A DNA stretch of 64,000 nt from Bugula neritina (GCA_964035545.1 OZ037765.1:24427504-24491503), one strand, 5' to 3'. Shown: positions 5,540-61,906, counted from the stretch's first letter. Numbers and translations: made by a program. Notes: a model not told the origin generated them from the sequence alone.

Positions 5540-8500
5540 TTAGCTATCATCAATATCTTGAATATCGTTTTCATTTTCAATTCCTTTATTTGCATAGTAC
5601 TTTCTAACAACACTCCTCCAATTGATTGCTTTTTCTATTCTTTCAGGTCCAGGCAAAACATTCTTATCTATATAAACCGCGTAACAAATATAAACATATC
5701 GCACATTGTATTTCTAAGCCAATTACAAACAAACCTTTTAAACATAGGTTTTCAATATTTTTTCCAATTGATGTAACAAGGTAACTGAATAAGTATCATT
5801 CAAGAACAATTTTTGCATTTTTTAATATTATCAGAAAAATGTCTTACCATCTGGGGCAACCCTAGTGCCTTTAATAGAGGTGGGCAAAGCATTTGAGTTA
5901 TAAGAATGATCAGTATCTGCATTCACACTGTGGGAGTTCAACCCTTCCTCATTATCTACTAGTTGTTGGCCTGAAGCTGTACAAACTTTACCTAGTAAAC
6001 AGCATAAATTGGTATCTCAAATAGGTGCTAAACAGTATATAATATAACAACAGCTCATGCAGAAGTACATAAGATAAGATTAAACTTTTATTCTAATAAA
6101 GTAAGTTTTGGTATTAATAGCAATCAGAACACAATCCTTTCAACTTTGAGCCATGAAACATTATCCAGTATACATTTCATGATGCCAAAAAAATTTATGT
6201 AAGTCTCTGGCTATTTACAAATGTTAGTTTATATTTTCAATTCCAGTACGAAGTTTGCAAACACCTTACATTGTAAGAACAAAAACAAGAAGCTTAACCT
6301 GCAATGCTTATGTGAATAGATATTTCTACCTTTATGTTTGATCAGAACCTTGAGATATATTATGAGTTTGACCAGCAGGTTGATTGGGGAAGGAGTGGAG
6401 GAGGTCTTGTTCATGTTCCTGATAAGCTTGGCACGGCCAAATTTCCATTCAGTGTCAGATTGAGCTTGTATTCGTTGGTAGGTATCTGACATCATAGCAA
6501 TTAGTAGGTTGATGAGAACAATGACAGAGATGAGAAGGTACAACCCAAACACAACTTTTATTATGGTTCTGGACCAGTTGGGAGTAGAATGTACTGGAGG
6601 TAGATTTTCTGGATCTACCAAGCCAAACAATGAAAAAAATAGCAACTCAAAAACATCATAAACTTTGAGATAAATAGCATTTGCATTGCCATTTCCTTGT
6701 CCAAGTGCCTCGCTAGCATCTCCATCATAAGGATAGACTTGCTGGTAAATAGCAGCAATATAAAATGTAAATCCAAACATGAAAACAGCAAGTATTACAA
6801 CGAATTTCACTAAATCAATAACAAGTGATCCAATGATGATAGCCCAAGGCCCAAACAAATGGTGAAAAGAAAGAAAATCTAATATTTGGACAAAGCAAAG
6901 AGTGAGAGAAATTCCTAAAAACTGATTTCGAATATATAAACATGTTCGCATATCATTCCCTTCAAGAAAAACAGCCACAACCTGAGTAACAGTGGCTGCA
7001 ACACCTAAAAACAGTATCAGGAGTTTGATGAGGCCAAGTCCATTGCGATCTCCAGGGTTGGTTAGTTCTGCTACTAATAAACCAGAGAACCATAAAAGCA
7101 ACACCCATTCAATAGGATTTGGAACAGCACTTTCTGCATCAACAATTCTATAGGGTGGAATAGCAGCCACAGCTACCAGAAAGCCAATGAAATAGACATG
7201 AGATACCAGGTATGACATGAATTTGAATATTGGAACATTGCAATACCTATGTCTCAGAGGCAATGAAAGAACCAACCATACAGGTGGGCATATAGTAAAT
7301 GCTAAGAAGAAAAAGAAAATCTTCCATGTTTTCCAATTTATTCCACCCATCCAGACATCAGATAAGTATTTCTGAATAGTTGGATGAGACACAACTTCTT
7401 TCTGGCCGCAATCTATAAGCACATCCAAAAAGGGTAACCCGAGCCGATCAACAGAGGTGAGTAACACTCGAGGAGAGTTTTCACTGGCAGCTATAGCCAT
7501 CAAATCTGTTGCCATTTGCTCGCAAAACTGTGATGCTGCAACTAACTCTTTTGCTCTCTCTTTTTCTTTTGAAGAAACTTCTAGAAACATTTTCGACATC
7601 TTTGCAGCTGTTTCACACGGTGCAGGTGAAAGGTTGATAAATTCTTCAATAGACTTTTGGTCATTGATTCGGCCACATACCATCAGATCAAATACAAACT
7701 ACAATCAACCAGAATCATCTTTAGTATCACTAACAAATGCTACATAATAATATATTCTTATATTTTTATATCTTGCATGGAATTTTTCAAGTCAACTACA
7801 AAAGGCTTTGATTGCTAAAATAGATGCAGTACCATTAAAAGTCATAGATAAAGACGAAGATGAAGGCCTTTGTGTAGCTAATTAAGCTAGATTTGGAACA
7901 AATTTGCTAGTTGTCAAATATTATTCAATTGCAGTAATAAAGAATTTTTAATAACATCTGTTTATTATTTTTTTCTTATGAATTTTCGTTTGAGGCAAAA
8001 GTTAAAATTTTGATGAGAACATAACTTCTTTTGCTACAATTTTTGTTTAACAGACAGGCTTTTTCCAATTTCTCAATTACTGCACGTATTTTGCAAATGT
8101 TTACTGAGACAAATAGTATGTAAAAATTTGTAGGTTTAATTTTTTACTGTGTTCAACAATTAATATTCGCAAGCATAGGGTATAAGTATGGGAAAGTTAA
8201 ACTCATACACAGCCATTGCAAATAAGAAAAGATAACAAGTTATGAAAATACTTGAGACTTTTAAGTTATGTTCAAGCCAAACTAGGTGGGCTGAACTATA
8301 TTATGCAAAATGTAATGAAATCTTTAGTCAGCCATCATTTTGAAGTAGAAAATTACTCTACATGCTGTACTTTACAGAATATGTAAATCTGTATTATACC
8401 AACTGGTTGGATTGTGAGAAATACAACTCAAGGTTATAAGCTTAACTCATATCAGAAAGACTATTGCGCTAAACTGTACTGATGGCTATACTTATAAGTT

Positions 8501-27807: not shown

Positions 27808-30800
27808 ATGGCCGAGAGACTTGGTAGGTGTTCCTTCTAATTTTGCTAAAAGAAAAATGAAATAAAAACTGCGATTTCAAGATTATTTTGCGCATAAAAA
27901 GATTATTTGTCATTACTAGTCGATCAATATATTGGACTTGGTATTTGACTCTTGTGTATGCACTACTTCTGTCACTCACAGTCACTGTACTGAATTAAAT
28001 CCAATAACTGAATAAATATTAGTATAACTATAACAACTACAAATTCATAAAGTTAAACAAGTACCTCATTTTGAGACTGATGTTCAACTTGAACTTGAGA
28101 TTCATATTCATATTGATATTTATATTATTATTGTTGATAATATTAATCCTGAAACTCAAGCAGCTAAATAGTAACACTAGCACTAATAGAAATACTAGCA
28201 GTAGCGCTATTAAGTATGACTATAAGTATAATTATAACTATAAGGTACTGGTAGTGGTAGTACTAGTAGTAGTAGTGATACTTATACTTATAGATCTAGT
28301 TTAATATTATACTAATACTGATGGTAATACTACTATTAAGTATTAACAGTAACTCTAATGTCTAAACCTAATAATAGTAATACTAAGTCTAATACTAATA
28401 CTAATAGTAAGTTTGCTGCTTTGAAAATGACCCTTAAATTAAATAGATTATTGGCATAATAGCTAAATAAGCTATTGCTTTTTATTTTTAATTAGTAAAA
28501 ATAATACTGCTAGTAGTAGTACTACTAATAGTAATTGGCAGCTACTAATGTGATAGTTTTGTGGATTGTGAATGAAACTAGTGCTGTTACATGCTTGTAT
28601 GAGAAACAAGGCGAGAAATAAGGTAGAATGTAGATAATCTTTATTGTAGTATAGTCCGAGTGAATCAATGGTCTTTATCCAGCGAGCTCCAGTAGTAGAC
28701 TGAACTATACTGGAACTCGCTGGCTTTTATATACATGCAGGACAAAGACATTCCTTTGTTTGCCGAGATCGGAGACCCGAAATACCGAATATCGGCATTT
28801 CGGGGATCCGAAACGCCGAATCCGGCATTTCGGTACTTCGGTATTCCGATATGCCGAGAATCGGCATATCGGTGTTTCGGAGGACCGAAGTACCGATCTC
28901 GGCAACAAAGGACACACACACACAACATAAATTTACCACACACACCCCCCATCGGAAAGCATGCTTTCCGATAAAGAGGCGTACACAACACAAACACACA
29001 ACAGGGAATGACACGACAATAAAACACACAGTTGAAAGTAACACACGAAAAAAAAATATGGTAAACATGCAGTGATAGTAATAATACAATGATAACACAC
29101 AAAAAAAACAGGGAAGATTTGTGCACACACAAAAAAACAGAGCATGAATAGGTACATGCATTACATGAAGAACTTACACATAAACAAACAAAGAATAAGA
29201 GTAGAAAAGAAAAGAAAAACTATACAAATAGTCTCAGCGGCGGTCGCCAGATCGACCCCGCTCCAGGCGGCTAACTCGTCTCCGGAGTTGCCCCAGCTCC
29301 TCTTCATATCTGCGGAGCTGCCGGCGTAACTGGTGAACCTCCTCTGCCAACTGAGCTGACGTCTGGTGCCTAGGGCGGTCGGTAGTACCACGGGCAGGAC
29401 GTCGCTGGCGGTGCGTCTGCTTCTCGCCCGCCGCCGAGGGTCGGGGGCCCAGGTCCGATGAATCGGCCCTGGCACCTGATCCGACCCGTGCCAGCATGAC
29501 CCGAAGTGGCTGGGTGGCTGCCGGTTGGGGTGTCGCGGCGGGCTCCCCTTCTTCCTCCCGAACAGGCCTACACGCGGGGAATCCCAGGGCGAGAGCAGCC
29601 CGTTTGTGGGGATCCGCCACGTGTGGCAGCACCAGGTCCCGAAATTCGGGAAAGGAGGCCTGGTCTACAGCAAACGTGTAGCCCGTGTGGCAGTGAGCTA
29701 TGCGCTGATGTCTCAACACATAGTCTCTCTGGTAGGAGAACTCCCCACACGGGCAAAACACGTTGATGTAATGCTGAGGGGCGTGTACGCGCAACCGCCG
29801 TGCAGAGGAGAATTTCCTCTTACACTCATGGCAGATGCGGTTGCCCGGCTCACCGCAAGCATCACCAATTTTTAGGTTGGTGGGTCCAGTCACCCAATAC
29901 TGGCGGGCGACCAGGGCCCGAGGCAGGGCCAGTATTGGGGAGGCATCTTCTTCTGCTGGCAGGTGGTCGCCGTGTAGGATGCCCTGCTCCTCCCCGGCCG
30001 TGAGCTGAAGCTCGACCGGTTTGGGGTCAGGGCCAACCATGGCGGAACACACCTCTGTGGAGGAGGTGGCGGCCTGCTGGCTGGTAGAAGCCGAAGCAAG
30101 GCCCGGTGGGGGAGGGGAGTCGGACCGACTGGCCTCCTCAACGTCCATTCGCTCCTCTAGAATAGATAGTAGAGGCTGTGAGAAGCCGGTCTCACTATCG
30201 CCGAAATTCGGCACAGGTGTGAATGGAGATAAGTTAAAAACCGAGGGCCGAGGTGTATCGCAGAAATTGACTGAGCCTACATCGTGATTCAACAATGTAT
30301 CAATGGCAGAGTCATCTCCGAGATCCATCTCGGCCTCCGGTCCTAAGATATCAGAACCAAGTAAATCTAGTAAAGACCAGTCTACTGTAGTTTGATTAGA
30401 CTCCGCAACTGGAGGATCTAATCTAGACGAAATACCTGATTGTGTATCTGGTAGAGTGATCCCCATAGCCGCTGATAGCGTACGGAGAATAGTGGTAAAA
30501 TCAAAATGAGTATTAGAATCAGAATTTAGTTTGAGTTGCAACTGCCGTGCGAGCTGTGTGAAGTCAGAATGAGAAATGGCCGAACCTCGTGCTTCAGAAG
30601 TTTTACCTGCTGAAGCCCGAGTCGCGTGGCCCGTGGGAATTTCCCCCGGATTTCGAGAAGACAACTCGCGTGATCGAGTGTCTTCCGAAATTCGGTCGGC
30701 CATTTCTTCTTCTTGGTGGAATTCTCCGGGGTGATGGAGGGAATTTCCAACCAAGATGGGGTGGCAGTCAGTGTGGGGGGGTCTTCCTCAGGAGGGGGCC

Positions 30801-33800
30801 CCTCCAGGTGTCCTACAGCATAGTCTGCCAGGTATCTGGGAGGTCTTCTTGGCCGCTGGCTCCTCTCAAGTGGAACAGACTCTGGTGGTGTTGGTGGCTC
30901 CTGGGCTACCCTGGTAGGGGGGTCCCCGTCTTCACCCCGTACGGGGGTGGGGGTGTCCTCCCCCGGAAAGGGTTGTGAGCCAAGGGCTTGCTGCTGTTCC
31001 TGCTCCCGCTCCGCTCTCTGCTGTCGCTCCAGCTGCTCTATCAGGGCGGCTTGCTCCTGGTCTGCCTCCCTGGGGACCATGATCTCCACCTCACGGGGCC
31101 GGGTGGCCCGTCCACGACGGTTGGGCTGACGGTGGGGCTCCAAGAGGGGTGGAGCCTGACCCACCGCGTCTGGGCTGGCATGGTAAGGTTTGAGGCGCTG
31201 CTCGCTCTGGACAGAGACCTGCCCAGAGCGCTCCACACGGTATGTGTGGTTGGGCAGCACCTCTACTACGCAGTAGGGGCCGACGAACTTGGGCTGAAGC
31301 TTAGCCGACTGTCCACGCCGCCTACGGTAACTCACCATCCAGACCCAGTCTCCCACTTGGTACAACGGGGGCTCCTCTGAGTCCTCGGTGCGGGTCTGCC
31401 ACTGCTGGGTGCGCAGCGCATCATGAGCTTTGCCCATGATGTCCATCAGACCCTCCACATATTCGTGTACCGGTGACTCGGGGGCAGGAACATGGTACGT
31501 CAGGTGTTCCGGGACCCGCGTCTCCCGGCCTAACATCAGGAAGTTTGGGGTCTCCTGCGTGGCGGAGTGTGGTGTGCTGCGGTAAGCCCGCATGATCTGC
31601 GGCAGCACCACGTCCCATTCTTCCTGACCTCGACCAAGCAGCAGGCTCCGGAGCGCGTCACCCAACATCCTGTTGTTCCGCTCGACGACTCCGTTCCCTT
31701 GCGGGTGATATGGGGTGGTCCGACTCTGGTTCACCCCCCATATCCGGCAGAGGTCTCCCATGAGCTGGGACTGGAACTGGGCACCCTGGTCTGTATGTAT
31801 CTGCTCGGGCAAACCGAGGTAACAGAATACATGTTGGTCCAGGGTCCGGGCCACCGTGGGGGCGGTGGCGTCTGGAATAGCCAGAGCATCTGCCCACCGG
31901 GTAAAGTGGTCCGTGAGCATCAGTATCCAGTTGTTTCCTCTGGCGGATAACGGCATAGGCCCGACGAGGTCTACCGCCACTACTTGCCACGGTCGACCAG
32001 CGTACAGCCGGCGTCGACCAGTGGTTTCCGTGGGGCGGCCATGCTTGCTAGCTTGGCAGACCTCGCATTGCCGTACCCGCAGTCGTACGTCCCGAGTCAT
32101 TCCGGGCCAATACCAACGCAGCCGCAGACACCTGATGACCCGACTGACTCCAGCATGAGCCTGCTTATGGGTGTCCCAGATCAGTTCCCGCCGGAGGGCG
32201 CGTGGACAGACGACGCGGTCCCTCTTCTGCTGGCGGTTGTCTGCTGCTAACGTTATCATCAGGAGGCCATCAGGACTGACCTTGAGGGCATCCCAGCGAC
32301 GACAGAGGAGTTGGAACTCAACGTCTCCCTGCCGCTGCTGTTCCTCGCTAGGTCGTCGGCCCTCATTCTTGGCCTGGAAGATGTCCGCTACCGCGCCGGG
32401 TAGCGTCTCCTGGAGTCGGCACAGCTCCTTGACGTTCTGGTGCAGAGTAGGGTTGGCGTGGAGCGCCTGGACACCGTCCTGGTGGGTTTCGGTCCGAAGA
32501 TGGCCGTGCTCCCACCGGTAGGCGGTGCCCTCCACTAGCTCTGTTTCCACGTCAAGGCGAGCGGGTCCCCCGTCCCGCTGTTCGATGTGCAGGCATTGCT
32601 TACAGTCCTCTACCGGCCGGCGGCTCATGCCGTCGGCGTTCCCATGCTTCCGGCCTGCACGGTGCTCTATACGGTAAGAGAACTCGGCAAGAATCTCTAG
32701 CCAACGAGCTACCTGGCTCGAGGGCTCTGCACGTTTACACAGCCATATCAGTGATGCATGGTCTGTTCGCAAACGGAACGATTTCCCATACAGATATGGC
32801 CGAAAGTGCTTGACCGCCTTGACTACTGCTAGGAGTTCCTTCCTAGTGGTGCAGTAGTTCTTCTCGGCGGCCGCGAGAGTCTTGCTATAGTAAGCCACGA
32901 CCACCTCACTTCCACCCTGGACTTGAGACAGGACGGCTCCCACGCTGTGGTCGCTGGCGTCGGTGTCCAGGATGTACTCCTTGGCTGGATCAGGATACGC
33001 CAGGATTGGCGCTTCCATTAGCCGTTGCTTGAGGTGGTCGAATGCCTGCTGCTCCTCCTGTGTCCACTGCCACCGGACTCCCTTGGCGGTCAGCCGATTT
33101 AACGGCTGAGCCACTCCTGCGAAACCAGGTATGTACTGCCGGTAGTACCCTACGAGGCCCAGGAATGCACGCAACTCAGGGAGGTCGCGGGGAACAGTCC
33201 ACTCCTTCACAGCTTGTACCTTCTCTGGATCGGTAGCGACCCCATCACGGCCAACCACATGGCCCAGGTATGTGACTTCTGGCTGCAGGAGTGCGCACTT
33301 GGAGGGCTTCAGCTTCAGTCCGGCTGCCCGGAGACGGTCAAAGACCTCCCGCAGACGACTGACATGAGTCGAGAAGTCTGGGGAGATGACAATGACATCG
33401 TCCAGATAGATGAGGAGGGTCTTCCAGTGTAACCCACTGAGGACTTGCTCCATGAGCCGTTGGAATGTTGCCGGAGCGGACGTTAGTCCGAATGGCAGTA
33501 CTTTCCACTTCCAGAGCCCGTCGCGAGTAATGAATGCTGCTTTGTCCTGGGCATCAGGACTGAGGGGCACTTGCCAGTACCCGCTAAGCAGATCCAAAGT
33601 ACTGAAGTACTTGCTACCCGCGAGGGCATCTAGAGACTCATCTATCCGTGGGAGAGGGTAGGCGTCCTGGATGGTGGCGTTGTTGAGTCTGCGGTAGTCT
33701 ACGCAGAATCTCCAGCTACCATCCTTCTTCTTGACCAAGACCACTGGGGAGCTCCACGCACCGTGGGCAGGCTCAATCAGATCCCGGTCCAGAAGATCCT

Positions 33801-36800
33801 GTACCTGTCGGCTCACCTCCTTCTCCTTCTCCGGGCCCAGACGTCGGGTAGGCTGCCTGATGGGAGTGGTGTCGGCTGCCAGGGGTATCTCGTGAGAGAT
33901 AACCTTAGTCAGCCCCATGTCTCTATCGCCACGACTAAAGACATCACTGTACTCCGCGAGTAGTTGAGCCAGTACTTGGCGTTCAGTACTACTCGTACAG
34001 TTTCCGCATGCTCCGTCATACAGGTCAGCCAGATGCTCCGGGACTGCTTCTCGTCTGGTGTGAGGGGGGGTTTCCCTGGTTGTCGGCCACTGTCTCCAGT
34101 GCCGGACCCACATCCGCTTCCTGGATGGAGTGGTACTTCCCCACCAGCGCTCCAGCCGATAGTTGGACAGGTTCCGTGAAGGGGTTGATGCACTGCACGA
34201 GGAGCTCTTGCCGACAATCTAGCCGATTCAGGCTGTTTGCTAGTCGGATGGCTCCGTGCGTTCCTTCAACCATCCCCAGGCCGGCGATCCCCTTGCAGTT
34301 GACTCTACATCGGAGAGTCGCCTGGGACCTCCCCGGAACTGTGCAGTCCCGTACTACCTGGACTCCGCCCACCAAGGGCCTGCCAAACTTGTCAACACAG
34401 ACAAGTTCCTTCCCAGCCATCACCACCACTGACTTCTGGAAATCCATGTGGCACTGGTGTTTCTCCAGGAAGGGCATTCCCAAGATGGCGTCCTCCTTCA
34501 GCTGGCTGACGATAAACGTCTCGTGAACTGCTTGATCACGGACGCGTCCAGGTAGTGAGATGACGCCGTAGAAAGGAATGCATGATCCGTCCGCCAACGT
34601 ACCATGCGCACCTTCATACGGCTCGAGGCTCGCCCGCTCTCGTGCACCAAGGGTGTCAAAGAGACGCCTACTCAGCAGGTTGGTAGTGCACCCAGTATCC
34701 AGTAGGAATGTGGCAGCTTTACCCGAAATCTTTCCGGGCAGGAAGTAGCTGCTTCCATACGGCTGGGTGCTCCTGGAGCGGTCAGTCTCTGGGGGAGACA
34801 CGACTTGGGTCCGCACAGCGGGCCTCCTCTTCGTCTTAGAGACAACGGGGGTTTTCTGAGGTCGGGAGGGTAGCTTGGGATACTCTTGCGAGTAAGCTGA
34901 ATCCTCCTCCACAACCTCCTCGGGCAACCCCGCGAACCGGTTACGGAGTGGCCAGGCTGGAGGATCGGGTAGACCTTGCGGCCTCCGAGATCTCCGAGGT
35001 GCCTGCCATCCGGTTTCTTCTAGTTCCATCCGGGTATCGAGTGGCAGGGCAGGAGGATCGGGTAGGCCTTTCGGTCTCCGAGATCTCCGGTTTGCGTGCC
35101 ACTCGATATAGGTCGACTCTGGAGAGGTCTCTTCTACTGTCTTCCGAGTCCTATCCCGGACCGGATTGGCATGGGGCCCACGGGTGGCGGAATTCACCGT
35201 GAGCCTCGGGTGTTTAAAGGCTTCTGTCCCTTAGGGCAGTGCCTTCTCACATGTCCTGGCATCCCGCACTCCCAGCAAGTGGGCATAGGGGGGCGGACAG
35301 GGTCGTCCCGCGAGCGGGGAGCCCGCCTGTCCGTCTGGTTGCGCTGCAACTCCGTCACTGTAGCCTGCAGGCCTTTCATCATGCTCATCAGCATGTTGAG
35401 CTGCGTCTGCTCAGGTGACGGGGTAGCTGCTGCTGCCACTTGTGGGGTTGGGGGTATCTCTTCTGCATCTCCGGCCACCTGGCGAGCTGCGTAGTTCGCC
35501 CTCCGTGGCTCTTCCACCTGGAAGTAGGCCTTCCCCATCTCTAGTGCTTCGTCCAGGCTCTTGACTTTTGCGGCTAGCCAGTACCGCTGGAGGTCCGGGT
35601 GGTTCACACTCCGGAAGAACGCGTTAAAAACGAGGCGCTTCCGATCGTCGCCAGTGGCGTGACCGAAAGCAGCCTGAGCCAGGCGCTCTACCTCGTTAGC
35701 GTGATCTTCCAGAGATGTCCTTCGGTCTCTCCTCATCACTTGTAGCTGGTCTGACGCCTCTTCCGTGGTCAACCCGAACCGGGCCCTAAGAGCCCGCAGG
35801 ATGTGGGCTTCGTCGGGTCCCAGTGCGAAGTTCCTGGCCCGGCCTGTCAGACAGGCCCGGAGTTGGAGGACGCGCACCCGTACTGGCCATTCAGCGGTGG
35901 CGGCCACGTCCTCGAACTCCTTGATGAACTGTTCCACGTCTCCATCTCCTCCGAAAGTCGGGGGCTGGAGGCGATACCTGTCACCAGGTGCTGCCTGTCC
36001 TTGCCCCCGCAATCCCTGGAGGGCTGTGACCAGCGCCTCAATAGTGAGGGCTGGTGGTGCTGCTGCCTCAGGGGCTGGGTCCCCTGGGGCCATCCTATTT
36101 CTCTTAGCAACTAGCTATTCGTAGAATCCCACCGCTGCCACCAATGTGATAGTTTTGTGGATTGTGAATGAAACTAGTGCTGTTACATGCTTGTATGAGA
36201 AACAAGGCGAGAAATAAGGTAGAATGTAGATAATCTTTATTGTAGTATAGTCCGAGTGAATCAATGGTCTTTATCCAGCGAGCTCCAGTAGTAGACTGAA
36301 CTATACTGGAACTCGCTGGCTTTTATATACATGCAGGACAAAGACATTCCTTTGTTTGCCGAGATCGGAGACCCGAAATACCGAATATCGGCATTTCGGG
36401 GATCCGAAACGCCGAATCCGGCATTTCGGTACTTCGGTATTCCGATATGCCGAGAATCGGCATATCGGTGTTTCGGAGGACCGAAGTACCGATCTCGGCA
36501 ACAAAGGACACACACACACAACATAAATTTACCACACTAAGTCTAAAAGTATCTACGTTAGTAGTAGGTGATAATAGTAGTCTAATGGTTATTTTGAAAC
36601 TGAATCACACTCACAATGGCAATACCAATAGACATGTTAATGAAACTTTATAATTATAATAATATTACTAATGCTTAATTATTTGATAATATTATTTTAA
36701 TAATAGTATTAATAGTTATGGTATTTAAACTTGTTAGTGGTATGGTTTTATTATATATTTAAATAGTAGTTTTTATAGGGTAATGATTCATAAAATGAAA

Positions 36801-42324: not shown

Positions 42325-45300
42325 ATGGCTCGTGGTCTTCTTGCTGATGACTATTTAGGTAAGGATGAATAACTTCTATATAAAAAAACTTTTTAATTTA
42401 AAGTTTTTAAGCTTATAAGATTAAATTGCAACATTATACTTAAATTTTAAAGATAGCTTTTACATTTTCTTGTACCTTTATCATGTGACATTTTGGTTTA
42501 ATATGTCTACCTGAAAGAACAAAAATATGTATGTGGTACTTTTATGTTAGTTAGAAAAAATAGTTACGAGTGTCATGTATGTAATGTATGTATGTATGTA
42601 ATTAATGGCATGCAAGTGATATATTGTATATTTTTCCAGCATATCACAACATACTGACATATATAGAAGATGCTACAGCTCAATTGCTACGATATAGAGC
42701 TGATATTCAAGCAAAAATAGATGTTAACAAGTTTTTTGCTAGCTAGTAAGTTTTCAGTTGGTTTTTTCGTATTCAGAAATATTGTGTTTTAAACCATTAA
42801 TAATACGTTTTATTGTGTACTCATATAATATGTCGTCAATAGCACAGAAAAATTTTATTCCATGAATAATCAGCGAAATAATTTTTAGAGTTTTTGGGTA
42901 AACAAATTAATATAATACAAATGTTTTTTTGTCCAACATGGCGTTTCTATTGAAATATTTGTTTTTAAATATAGATCTCCATCAATAGAAAATTATAATA
43001 TTTTGTGCTAAGGATTTTCAACTTTACAGCAACAAATCTTTACTGCCATGTTTTTAAATAATCACAAAAGCATCAAGAGTGTTTTTTTTACCAGTTTGTG
43101 GACTGACTGTATAATTATTTAAATATACACCTGTAAACCAAATATATTTGTTACAAAACAAGGTGCTAATTTTTAAAATTTTAATTGCTGATTTTATTTA
43201 AATTAACAAAGTCTAAATGTCATTAAGAAACGTGTTGCATTGAGTCAGCTGTTGTTTAACTTATATTTTAGTTTTACATGTTTAAAAGAGGGGAAGCATG
43301 CAATTTTTCGAGAATTTGAATTTATCAACTCAACTCCATATAACAGAGCTTGCTTTGTTGACACATTTCACAAATGCTTTGCTGCATTAGGAAAGAAAGG
43401 AGGTTGGTAGCGGACTTATTATTGCTAGATTTTTTGAAACAATGTGTAGTAGATTTGTGGGTTATAGAATGAAATCAGGCAGAGAACATAACTCCTTGTT
43501 ATAGAAGAGACAAGAGAGAGAGGTTGCCGTGTGCTTGCAGTACTCTATTATAGTAGAGAGAAGTGTCCAGTGTGAGCTCCAGTCCGCAAGTGACTGAAGC
43601 TCTAAAATGCGTGTCCTTTTATACTGGTAGAACAAAGGACCTCTAGAACCTTCCACCGACAGCGGGCCGATGTTCGGCAGGGGATACCGACATTCGTCAT
43701 GTCGGTAACCGACACTGGAAATATCGGTAACCGACATTCGGTCTGCCTGCATCCACCTGCCGAAATCGGTCCAACTGTCGGTTTACATGAATCAACAAAA
43801 ATGAACCCAACCAAGTGTATGCGTATTGTAACTTGTAATTGGGGGAAAGGGGATTAACTATTTACTATGTTAAAAGCTCAACATTAGCCATAGTGTTTAA
43901 GGTATTAGAAAGTTACGCTACATAATTAGCTATGATTACAGTATTTAGAAAAATAGCCATAAGTAAAGTGTCAAGGGGGATAACTCTTAATATTTACCAC
44001 AAATGTTTGTTGCTGATATATTTTGACAAAAAGGTAATTTGTATATGTTAAACTCAGATTTACTGGCTTAGCCTTTCTGCAAATTCACTGGTAACTTTTT
44101 AGATTTATTTTCATCTATTCTATGTCTTTGGTTCAGCTTTTAACAAAGTATAGAATCATTTCAACATAGATGAAGCTATTTTCATTTATAATTAGAATGT
44201 TTTTTTAAGTGAGCTTGGTCATGTTTATATATAATCTATACATAATATACTTGCACATTGTATGATTTGTTTACAGATTTGCTGGCTATAAGGGACTATT
44301 ATGCTTTAGTCTCTGTATTATGCAGTGATTTTCCATATGAGATGCTTCAGAAAACAGCAAAGATAGTACTCATTGACGATGCCCACGATTGCCTAATATC
44401 ATTTACAGACTTTCTTTATTCTTTTCAACTGCAACTGTATTATCAAGGTAATTCCAAATATTTCATAACATGGTTTTTTAAATCATATGCTTTCATGATA
44501 AGTCCATTATCTGTTGATCAGTTTTTCCCTGCTATTCAGCAAAGGCTTATGATGTATGCAAAAATACATATTATTATGTGGTGCTGATAAATGGTCTTAA
44601 ATGTAAATACAGTATGCATTGAATAACAATCTTTGTTTCCCAAACCTTTGCAATTTTATTGTGAAATTTTGTGTTCCACAGTTTATTGTGTCTTTATTTC
44701 ACAGAGTTCTTGGAAGCTTCTAGCAATACGTACCAGTCGTTACTCACTGAGAGCCACAGCCCACGAGATATTGTTGTCCCTACTGATCACACTACACAAG
44801 TTCATAAGGAGAAACAATTACCAAGCAATTCTACTCTTACAGCTACAGAAGGAGTTGATAGCATGAAATTTTACAAATCACTCAGTCAGCTGATAGATAA
44901 ATACCGATTTAGGTAATTTATATTCTTGTACATGCTTTTCAACCTCAAAACTCTCACAAAACATGAAAGCTACAGGTAAGGTGGAACTAACAGCTACTGT
45001 GTAGAAGTTTCAGAGATACATCTTATTACACACTAAAATATGATGATGTAATAATATTTTATACAGAAAAGTTTAGTATATTTACCTTGTTTGCAGTATC
45101 ACATTACCACTTGCTCTAAGCTAACAAATGTGCAATATGAACAATAACTATATTTTATGTTTCATATTGAAATGTATAAAGATACTGATGACAAACCAAC
45201 TGAAATTTGTTTTTTCATACGAATAATTTAAACTCCATTTTATTAACTTTCCAGCATACCTTCATTAGCAACTCTGAAAGAAATTCTTTCAGCTAGTCCT

Positions 45301-59200: not shown

Positions 59201-61906
59201 GCTTTAAATATCACATGCATCTGTATCAGTTTAATTATGAACATATTTTATTTTTAATATAGCTAGAAATTCATATTTGGAAGTAAGGGTTATTTCACTT
59301 GTTATTCTTATTATTTATTGTCATTGGCTTTAAATGTTCACTGGTAAATTTTTGAGTTGATGGAGAGTTGTAGTTTTTTCCAAACGTGTAGTGTTTGTTC
59401 TGTCTGATATCTGCAGTTTGAGAAGTTGTCTTCTTGAAAAATGAATTGATGTTCTAAACTCAAATCAAGTGACAATTGATTGCTAAAACTATTTTCTACA
59501 CTATTGGTAATTGAATGTAATCATGATTTTCTGGTTTAAAAACTCCATTAAAGAGACTTGCTGTCTTTCTGTTTGCAGGTCAGCAAGACTTCACAAAGTA
59601 CTGTGTTGAATGCTGAAGCATACATACTCTTCTATGGGAGACTGGAGAATAAAACCGTATATGTAAATGGAAAAGCTCCGTGCACCATTACCAGATATGG
59701 TATTTTCTAGCAAACAATATTCTTTAGCTTCTAAACTATTGTTGCACCTATTTTGTATTTGTTTTAAATAATCACTTCATTTGTTACCTTTGTATTTTTT
59801 AATTACGGCTTTCTATTTTTAGACACCAAATCATCATGCCACACCTCATCTAAAGGTAAAGTTATGATTGGGCCACAACTACCAGCTAGAAATATCCCCC
59901 CAAAAAGCCTAATCTATAAAGTAAACAAGCCAACAGCTGTTGTAGTCAATACAGGTTTACAAAGTCTTGTTCCATACCCAGAAGAGAGAGATTCCCCTGA
60001 ACGTGAGGTCAGTTTGATAGTAACTAATAGATACAACGTTTTGTTGTTAGTAACATATGATACAGCCTACTAGCAAGTAATTCTTCTTTTCTTATACTTG
60101 TTGTGTTTTTATTACGGTTGTGTTTTTATGAGGTCAGTTTGATAGTAACTAATAGATACAACGTTTTGTTGTTGGTAACATATGATACAGCCTACTAGCA
60201 AGTAATTCTTCTTTTCTTATACTTTTTGTGTTTTTATTTTACTGCTAAAGTACAATCTGATGTTTGTCTTGTTTCTTTTAAGGATGCCAGTAATGAAATG
60301 AATGCTCCCTCTCATAAAGTTGCTAAAGATATCATACGGCCGGCTCTTTCTAGCAAGTTAAATAGTTTTTCCAATTCATTGTTGAAGTTTACGCCCAGAT
60401 CTGTTGAACCAGCTGCTAAACCTAAGGTAGTCCTTGTACACGTTGATCATTTTAGTTGTACCAATATGATGTTATGTGCTTTGGGTTAAACGTGACATGA
60501 CATTATTTTGGACATCCAAGAATGCTGGTAATTTGTAATTTCTGTAATGGCCTTTTTCCACTAAAATGGGGACAGTTGCATGTATATATTTTTAAGTAAA
60601 CACTCGTAACCTTGTTTTATTGATTTAACCCTTTAGCCCATTACGTATTACATATTATTAAGCTATAGTCCAATATTAATTGAACTGGAAGTTATCTGTT
60701 ATAAAATCAACATATGACTTTGAAACCGGCCCTTTCACATTTGACATGTTTTATAAGTTGTTATAGCTATTTGATGAATGTTGCTGTTATATGTAGATGA
60801 TTCCGGAGACTCCAGCTGCTGAAAACATTCCAGATGTTGCTACCTCACACCTCACGCCCATTGAGATGGTGCACAATGGCTCTTCTCAAAAGTCCGATGG
60901 CACAACATTGATGAGTACTGATGTGGTTTCACCTTCTTGCTCTAATCACAAAACACAAACTGTCTCATATGAAGCATATACGGAAAATTCACTTCATCAA
61001 ACTGACATAGTAGTGGAGCAAAAGACTAAACAGTTAGAGCAGATTGAAAACAATGTTGGTTCAGCCAGAAAAGAAATTGACAATCATTCTTCTAAATGTG
61101 TTCAAAGTGACGAATATGACGATGACAGGCACAATGATGAGAATGTTAAAAAGTTAGCATTGTTTAAATTTAATTCTGCTGTCACTCATCGAAGCTATCG
61201 AACCTACAAAAACACTTTTGCTGACAAGACCAAATCTGATCACAGTCCCTCAGGTAGAGACTTGCCAGAAGACCACTCATCAAACAACACTAATGGTGCA
61301 TTATCTGTACATCATAGTACATCGCTAAAGCACAGTATATCACCACAGCAATGTAGCAGATCACAACATAGCAAATCACCCAGACGACGTAGTCGGTCAC
61401 AACATAGCAGATCACGACGACGTAGTCGGTCACAACATAGCAGATCACGACGACGTAGTCGGTCACAACATAGCAGATCGCGACGACGTAGTCGGTCACA
61501 ACATAGCAGATCACGGCGACGTAGTCGGTCACAATGTAGCAGACCGCGCCAGCATAGATCAGAACAATATAGCAGATCACCACTACGGCGTAGTGGATCA
61601 CCTCAACAACGGCATGAGCGATCACCCCAATCCAGTAGATCTTATAAACAGCACAGCAGATCATCTCAACACTATGGTCGCTCTTATCAAGAACATAGGC
61701 ATGGTAAAAGAAGCTATGTTGATCACACCAGGCACAAAGATGCATATTCACGCAAAGAAAGACCTTATTACGAGTCATATCAGATAGGTATGAAAGATTG
61801 TAGTCGTCAATATAAGGATCATCACAGGAGGTCAAAAGACCATGAAGATAGGAAATACTATAATTCACATCTGGTAAATGGGAAAGGCGATTCCAACAGT
61901 TGGTAG
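56212..61906 (+). CDS. USP36: Ubiquitin-specific protease of the USP36/USP42 (scrawny) family; first and last exon limits tentative
   Basis: DGLPPAK...KW....[21 protein letters not shown] (Cys box), [45 protein letters not shown] (His box), WYCMNDS, AYILFY; Arg/Ser/His-rich C-terminal exon. Confidence 0.9.
60004..60240 (+). repeat. ~110-bp tandem duplication (125-bp offset) that includes an exon-intron junction
   Basis: tgag|gtcagtttgatagtaactaatagatacaacg...cttttcttatact appears at 60004 and 60129. Confidence 0.9.
61385..61543 (+). repeat. Coding 33-bp tandem repeat (~5 copies; [11 protein letters not shown])
   Basis: Unit cgacgtagtcggtcacaacatagcagatcacga in near-identical copies. Confidence 0.9.

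Follow-up and report, generated by a model that had tools for sequence, protein, structure and literature searches.

The palindrome CCGAAATTCGG recurs within ORF3 of a Ty3/gypsy retrotransposon, and we put the probability that its copies are cis-acting sites of double-stranded DNA at roughly 70%. In the window, i.e. the whole stretch of 64,000 nucleotides (64 kb) that was analysed, there are three exact copies, at 29639-29649, 30201-30211 and 30685-30695, and none besides. An exact search combined with frame mapping confirmed that each of the three 11-mers lies in a different codon phase, as the earlier note had described. A protein repeat was considered as the source of the palindromes and was rejected, since the phases differ. 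The more general claim that the protein cannot explain the sites is too strong for single sites, because both PEFR and PNFG belong to conserved peptide blocks. Two of the copies had been said to extend to 13-bp inverted repeats; this is correct for 30201, whereas the repeat at 29639 measures 15 bp and 30685 has no extension. The sites and the related dyads of the element interior are as follows.

29639-29649: site 1, CCGAAATTCGG, a 15-bp inverted repeat within the coding sequence of the zinc-finger domain; codes for PEFR, phase 1
30201-30211: site 2, CCGAAATTCGG, a 13-bp inverted repeat with the Met186 codon 53 nt downstream; codes for PNFG, phase 0
30685-30695: site 3, CCGAAATTCGG without extension, in the linker that follows the integrase tail; codes for DRISE, phase 2
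30580-30590: one-mismatch dyad, a possible fourth site; compatible in 6 of 14 homologs
29434-29444: perfect dyad with a GGG spacer in ORF3, probably incidental; compatible in 2 of 43 homologs
35951-35961: perfect dyad in gag, 1 mismatch from CCGAAATTCGG

The host element is a retrotransposon on the minus strand and has the gypsy domain order, i.e. gag, PR, RT, RNaseH, IN. It consists of the following parts.

36145-36536, minus strand: 5' LTR of 392 bp, TG...CA, identical to the 3' LTR; target-site duplication CTAA
36126-36143, minus strand: primer binding site, located from the sequence, which we take to be of the tRNA-Leu type
35194-36093, minus strand: gag with a CCHC knuckle
34025-35029, minus strand: aspartic protease ORF
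30526-34113, minus strand: RT-RNaseH-integrase-SH3 ORF, which over its final ~90 codons overlaps ORF3 in another frame
29234-30703, minus strand: ORF3, with an acidic low-complexity region, a tandem C2H2 domain and a coiled coil; the frame is open from 30787
28549-28940, minus strand: 3' LTR of 392 bp, with the polypurine tract before it at 28941-28951

The identity of the two LTRs suggests that the element is young and was inserted recently. No chromodomain family was detected at E <= 0.1 in Pol or ORF3, the C2H2 domain being found in that position, and env gave no match in this element. The reading frame shifts at 34025-34218 (protease/RT) and at 30704-30787 (integrase tail/ORF3), and these shifts may be due to mutation or assembly error or may be natural. 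Some relatives have a single continuous Gag-Pol-finger ORF, which is 2373 aa long in P0289. Close to the gag stop there is a TTTAAAC heptamer (35212-35218) that resembles a ribosomal frameshift signal, and the gag-protease junction contains a 93-nt tandem duplication (34937-35101) that is 82% identical over 72 nt. Elsewhere in the window, a single ORF of 484 aa with an ion-transport domain (6229-7683) is probably a host channel gene, and a 33-nt tandem repeat is located at 61350-61613 within two opposing ORFs, the longer of which has no Pfam match.

The frequency of the palindromes was compared with that in shuffled sequences. In 3000 synonymous-codon shuffles of ORF3 three exact copies were never seen, two copies were seen once and one copy 256 times, so the earlier statement that three copies are unlikely by chance is borne out. 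The four dyads of ORF3 were also reached by none of the 3000 shuffles. As look-elsewhere controls, we counted the ORF3 synonymous shuffles in which any 11-mer occurred at least three times (30 of 3000) and the shuffles in which any dyad class of the form 4-N(0-7)-4 occurred four times (1 of 3000). For the element interior, the five observed dyads were reached in 0 of 500 GC-matched dinucleotide shuffles, in which the maximum was 2. Four of these five are in ORF3 (1470 nt), and pol (3312 nt) has none. The gag dyad at 35951 alone is not significant (matched in 32/300 shuffles), and the one-mismatch dyads, which besides 30580 include 34156 and 35641, show no clear enrichment beyond the perfect ones (5 observed versus 2.1 expected, 6/300 shuffles).

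These counts bear directly on a combination of protein constraint and chance, according to which PEFR and PNFG are simply peptides under conservation, the element being GC-rich, and the resemblance to the LTR unit described below is partly a coincidence. We consider this explanation unlikely. It is favoured by the 256 shuffles with one exact copy, by the 30 shuffles in which some 11-mer recurred, and by the position of both peptides within conserved blocks, but it does not account well for the fact that no shuffle contained three copies, nor for the identity of the motif with a consensus that the LTR defines independently.

This consensus comes from a dense array of CCGA half-sites in U3, which spans 140 bp and in which the CpGs are mostly 8 bp apart. 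The arrays are located as follows.

28763-28902, minus strand: U3 lattice of the 3' LTR with 18 CCGA half-sites, which face both ways and have a period of 6-8 bp; the dyads at 28785 and 28854 belong to it
36359-36498, minus strand: U3 lattice of the 5' LTR, a copy of that in the 3' LTR, ending ~30 nt upstream of the TATA box (36320-36330)
43656-43781, minus strand: CCGA cluster in the U3 of a diverged solo LTR (~43443-43830) with 12 half-sites and 2 perfect dyads

The 18 half-sites of U3 have the consensus CCGA-[A9/T6/G3]-[A11]-[T12], i.e. CCGA-W-A-T. CCGAAATTCGG corresponds to two overlapping consensus half-sites and is the perfect dyad of the U3 unit. The solo LTR can be aligned to the element LTR in R and U5 and hardly at all in U3, and its half-sites are in the equivalent position. 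The dyads of the LTR and of the solo LTR are found at the places claimed earlier, and CCGA-N3-TCGG occurs 11 times in total, i.e. 4 times in the two LTRs together, 4 times in ORF3, once in gag and twice in the solo LTR.

The same arrays can be read in two other ways. One is that the palindromes act as hairpins of RNA or single-stranded DNA, i.e. as packaging, export or reverse-transcription signals, which ORF3 could bind as a Rev- or CERV-like RNA-binding protein. The U3 lattice folds strongly as a single strand (z = -12.8), as does the U3 of the solo LTR (z = -8.4), and the stem pairing probability is 0.92-0.94 at 29639 and 0.64-0.94 at 30201. R also begins with a hairpin (28672-28716 and 36268-36312), which on the minus strand lies immediately 3' of the TATA box and part of which is common to the solo LTR. 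Moreover, CERV, the 3' ORF product of Cer1, is reported to be needed for RNA export (PMC10309623). Nevertheless, site 30685 has a pairing probability of 0.0 with each of the three window sizes, there was no sign of compensatory changes in that the stems never switch to other pairs, and strong folding is a side effect of any lattice built from one half-site in both orientations. Binding of duplex DNA also agrees with the strict 8-bp period ahead of the TATA box, and we regard the hairpins as a rather improbable explanation.

The second alternative keeps the sites in double-stranded DNA and assigns them to a host protein that reads unmethylated CpG half-sites, such as the SAND-domain protein DEAF1, which would bind both the sites and the lattice and keep U3 and an internal promoter active, leaving ORF3 with some other role. 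DEAF1 is reported to bind repeated TTCGGG in unmethylated form at CpG spacings of 6-11 nt, among which 6 and 8 are the most frequent (PMC4274154). The 8-bp period of the lattice is equivalent to a 6-nt CpG spacing, and three TTCG direct pairs with this spacing are present in the LTR. The retention of the CCGA core in the diverged solo LTR is explained equally well by a host factor, and the LTR is CpG-rich (CpG o/e 1.28) within host DNA that has ~31% GC and a CpG o/e of 0.38-0.44. The dyads of ORF3 are, however, inverted with 5 nt between the CpGs, which is outside the reported DEAF1 range, and no TTCG direct pairs at 6-11 nt were found in ORF3 or in the solo LTR. Nor does a host reader account for the concentration of sites in ORF3. 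We find this alternative doubtful.

The conservation of the sites was investigated at the peptide level: the aligned peptides of 159 homologs were scored for their ability to encode the dyad. Because the homologs share ancestry and many of them appear decayed, the compatibility counts are not independent of each other. At site 2, 30 of 45 homologs were compatible and 39 of 45 were within one mismatch; the compatible peptides were PNFG (20), PKFG (5), PKIG (4) and PNVG (1). Read as its reverse complement, CCGAAATTCGG can code for PKFG. At site 1 the compatible fraction was 21/84, and it decreased with distance, from 11/21 at an identity of at least 50% to 10/41 at 35-50% and 0/22 below 35%; among Pol fusions it was 0/30. 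Site 3 was evaluated by inspection, in which SRNSE, YRRSA and NRNSG proved compatible and EQISE did not. Control positions compatible only in this ORF3 gave 0/10 and 0/35, and 4/14 where the position overlapped 30580. Several of the misses (LKFG, LNFG, PKFS, PNFS, PEFW, PEFQ) are one CpG transition away from a dyad. The perfect dyad at 29434 was rejected as a conserved site because of its low compatibility. A ranking of the sites among 1310 positions was also discarded as circular, since any conserved compatible peptide will rank high.

Site 2 is flanked by residues conserved to the same extent as the site itself (P160 in 36/42, Y161 in 33/40, K162 in 37/40), and site 1 lies within a folded domain of mean identity 0.71. 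Since site 2 is thus part of a wider conserved peptide and site 1 part of a conserved domain, protein selection may explain them, and the dyad at 29434 illustrates that unconserved dyads do arise. Against a purely protein-level origin, N166 is replaced by K in 11 of 16 substitutions and not by D or S, and R-x-S is retained at site 3 even though the linker is poorly conserved. In this copy the flanking YK-x-M has been lost and the dyad has been kept. The conserved P-Y-K ahead of site 2 could encode a TATA-like box, which is absent in this copy, and in some homologs there could be an extended lattice module at site 2. The suggestion that the palindromes act at the nucleic-acid level is moderately supported, by the counts, the three phases, the identity with the U3 consensus and the dyad-compatible substitutions of homologs; some share of protein selection is still conceivable.

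Contigs from four runs were aligned to the window; two of the runs, X3 and X4, come from one study, and X1 is possibly the window's own source. Among the 40 differences listed out of 929, site 3 is flanked by fixed or nearly fixed differences at 30681, 30683, 30698 and 30701 and contains none, and the LTR dyad at 28854 differs in its spacer alone (28858 and 28860). In a 63-nt stretch around site 1 the two differences listed are at 29643 and 29644, both in the spacer and both non-synonymous, with only the central positions being eligible. Many diverged contigs span site 1 and break at 29650, and the summed contig depth falls at 29651 from 3641 to 1131 in X3 and from 572 to 217 in X4. Another contig break is located at 30213, beside site 2.

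The protein that could bind these sites is encoded by ORF3 itself. Two of its regions are relevant here, in addition to an acidic region (residues 81-200) with 22 D/E versus 4 K/R.

29549-29932, minus strand: conserved two-zinc-finger domain, aa 258-385, with a model pLDDT of 95 and C2H2 sequence matches to E 1.7e-7
29246-29362, minus strand: C-terminal predicted helix, coiled-coil-like, aa 448-486

In the predicted model the fingers have the Cys2His2 ligands and the beta-beta-alpha fold of classical C2H2 fingers. Among 42 sequences the ligands C294 and H311 are invariant, and C291, H307, C319 and H332 are conserved in at least 90%. The linker between the fingers is YINVF and not of the TGEKP type. 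The best structural match of the finger pair is to the fingers of Kaiso, a weak one (Z 3.7, rmsd 2.8, 57 aligned residues, with no Z >= 5 among the matches), and on DNA-bound pairs the rmsd is 2.3-2.8 over 50-57 residues at a Z of 3.7 or less. Pfam contains no family above cut-off for the two-finger domain, a Foldseek search of the PDB and the viral library was negative at E <= 0.001, and a full-length VIA search returned coiled-coil matches only. The C-terminal helix is retained in distant homologs.

ORF3 has 11 close homologs (set A1), and there are 306 relatives at E <= 0.001 (150 among the matches listed). With the domain profile the two-finger domain is found in frame behind the integrase in 34 of the 120 listed Pol homologs (26 of 120 with the first profile). 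In P0010 and P0012 the integrase-tail motif is in frame with ORF3, so the frame of this copy must change shortly upstream of the ATG at 30703. Of the 11 A1 homologs, P0010 and P0012 are the two that extend across this ATG, and neither has a Met in its place; a functional role for the ATG was rejected, as the codon is not conserved. The position of one site just downstream of the ORF3 ATG, which had been put forward as significant, thus carries no weight. The conserved methionine is M186 at 30146-30148, present in 10/10 sequences of A1 and in 40/53 of the wider set, and it follows that two of the three CCGAAATTCGG sites are upstream of a conserved Met.

The frequent fusion with Pol raises the possibility that the finger domain belongs to the integrase, and that it binds the sites on the cDNA of the element for intasome assembly, nuclear tethering or target choice and not for transcription. 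Its position is that of the chromodomain in chromoviruses (PMC12440569), and the fusions, including P0010 and P0012, are in keeping with such a role. On the other hand, the Pol closest to this one, P0016 (78% identity over the integrase region), lacks an in-frame finger domain, and a distant gypsy family with ~50% identity in Pol carries the finger gene as an ORF of its own behind a ~300-nt spacer rich in AT, which means that the domain can stand apart from Pol. End processing, moreover, does not need internal sites, and we hold this role to be quite improbable.

The distant family is represented by copies that are 94-98% identical (loci L003, L004, L005, L007 and L010) and it is the only other family whose DNA was compared. 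None of the five loci has a dyad or a cluster of half-sites, which indicates that the motif is restricted to the clade of this element, and no repeated motif of the family's own stood out. P0144/P0286 and P0172 have two copies of the finger domain and no Pol; P0144 and P0286 are annotated genes of the bryozoan Watersipora subatra and are possibly domesticated. This bryozoan is the single named source among the relatives of the domain, which makes it likely that the host of the element is a marine invertebrate. Relatives of ORF3 were found at no locus in viral contigs or metagenome contigs, and relatives of Pol at no locus in viral contigs, neither by the Pol search nor by the Pol pattern. The Pol pattern gave 10 loci in metagenomes, of which 6 match Pol or the finger profile (5 of one family and a deleted copy) and 4 match neither, and 6 loci in prokaryote genomes, none of which matches the element proteins. 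With the U3 lattice pattern a single viral locus was obtained, which has no match to the element proteins, and plasmids gave no match.

Autoregulation by ORF3 is, on sequence grounds, a plausible and the leading mechanism, because ORF3 is a tandem C2H2 and coiled-coil protein, and the palindromes may be regarded as candidate operators. More specifically, we tentatively propose, at somewhat below even odds, that the palindromes are bound by a dimer of the element's own putative two-finger ORF3 protein and that this binding activates or de-silences the element. The ORF3 protein would dimerise through its C-terminal helix and recognise CCGA-W-A-T, with its two fingers covering roughly one half-site and the coiled coil presumably joining such units on the dyad. 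Besides the Pol-fused form, ORF3 could be made alone from Met186, via an internal promoter or by splicing. Sites 30201, 30580 and 30685 would then control the ORF3 unit, whereas the genomic RNA would be driven from the U3 lattice. By acting on its own unit and on the LTR, ORF3 would thus establish a positive feedback, as with foamy-virus Tas. There are three candidate sites upstream of Met186 (30201, 30580 and 30685), which fits the expectation for an ORF3 that is expressed alone and exerts feedback both on its own unit and on the LTR. A start at Met186 would, however, leave out most of the acidic region, and this counts against our proposal.

The broader picture, which we offer as a possibility with more doubt than the binding itself, is that of an animal Ty3/gypsy clade with its own dimeric zinc-finger transcription factor, belonging to an undescribed domain family, and with CpG-containing candidate sites both in U3 and in the coding sequence of the factor. 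The two would form an activation or anti-silencing loop whose motif changes from family to family. Literature searches at the level of titles and the beginnings of abstracts turned up neither this domain nor this motif.

It is generally assumed that simple LTR retrotransposons rely on the host for the factors of their transcription. If the ORF3 protein does bind the dyad, an animal gypsy clade has a switch of its own; and whatever the binder is, there is a widespread and unnamed two-finger and coiled-coil domain behind gypsy integrases (34/120 listed Pol homologs, 306 relatives). Self-encoded DNA-binding regulators with cognate sites have been described for complex retroviruses, i.e. Tas (PMC9143442), and for plant DNA transposons, i.e. 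VANC (PMC5735166). The present element belongs to neither system; it is of the gypsy type and is not one of the chromoviruses. Foamy-virus Tas is reported to bind DNA at two places, the LTR and an internal promoter (PMC9143442), and this system is similar to the present element in that the same motif is found in U3 and near the accessory gene. Unlike the Tas system, this is a Ty3/gypsy element without an env match, its ORF3 consists of C2H2 fingers and a coiled coil and is often fused to Pol, and both the binding and the internal promoter are proposed.

The VANC proteins are reported to bind short motifs that are arrayed in their own VANDAL family in Arabidopsis (PMC5735166). The likeness is that a transposon-encoded protein occurs together with dense, family-restricted arrays of a short motif, which here form the lattice in the element and in the solo LTR. 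VANDAL is a plant DNA transposon with non-coding motifs in the same orientation, whereas here the half-sites are in both orientations, contain CpG and have three copies within coding sequence, and anti-silencing is only proposed. With the DEAF1 elements described in PMC4274154, the sites share TTCGG-like half-sites, which are unmethylated in the case of DEAF1, and the U3 lattice also shares the 6-nt CpG spacing. The inverted ORF3 sites, with their 5-nt CpG spacing, differ from the reported arrangement and the LTR lattice agrees with it, and DEAF1 is a host factor. Finally, an extra domain or ORF between the integrase and the 3' LTR is a feature common to chromoviruses (PMC12440569) and to Cer1 with its CERV (PMC10309623), and CERV is an example of a 3' ORF that can act on RNA instead. 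In the present element, as opposed to chromoviruses and Cer1, the extra domain is a tandem C2H2 domain with no Pfam family above cut-off, and its cognate sites are proposed to lie in the element's own DNA.
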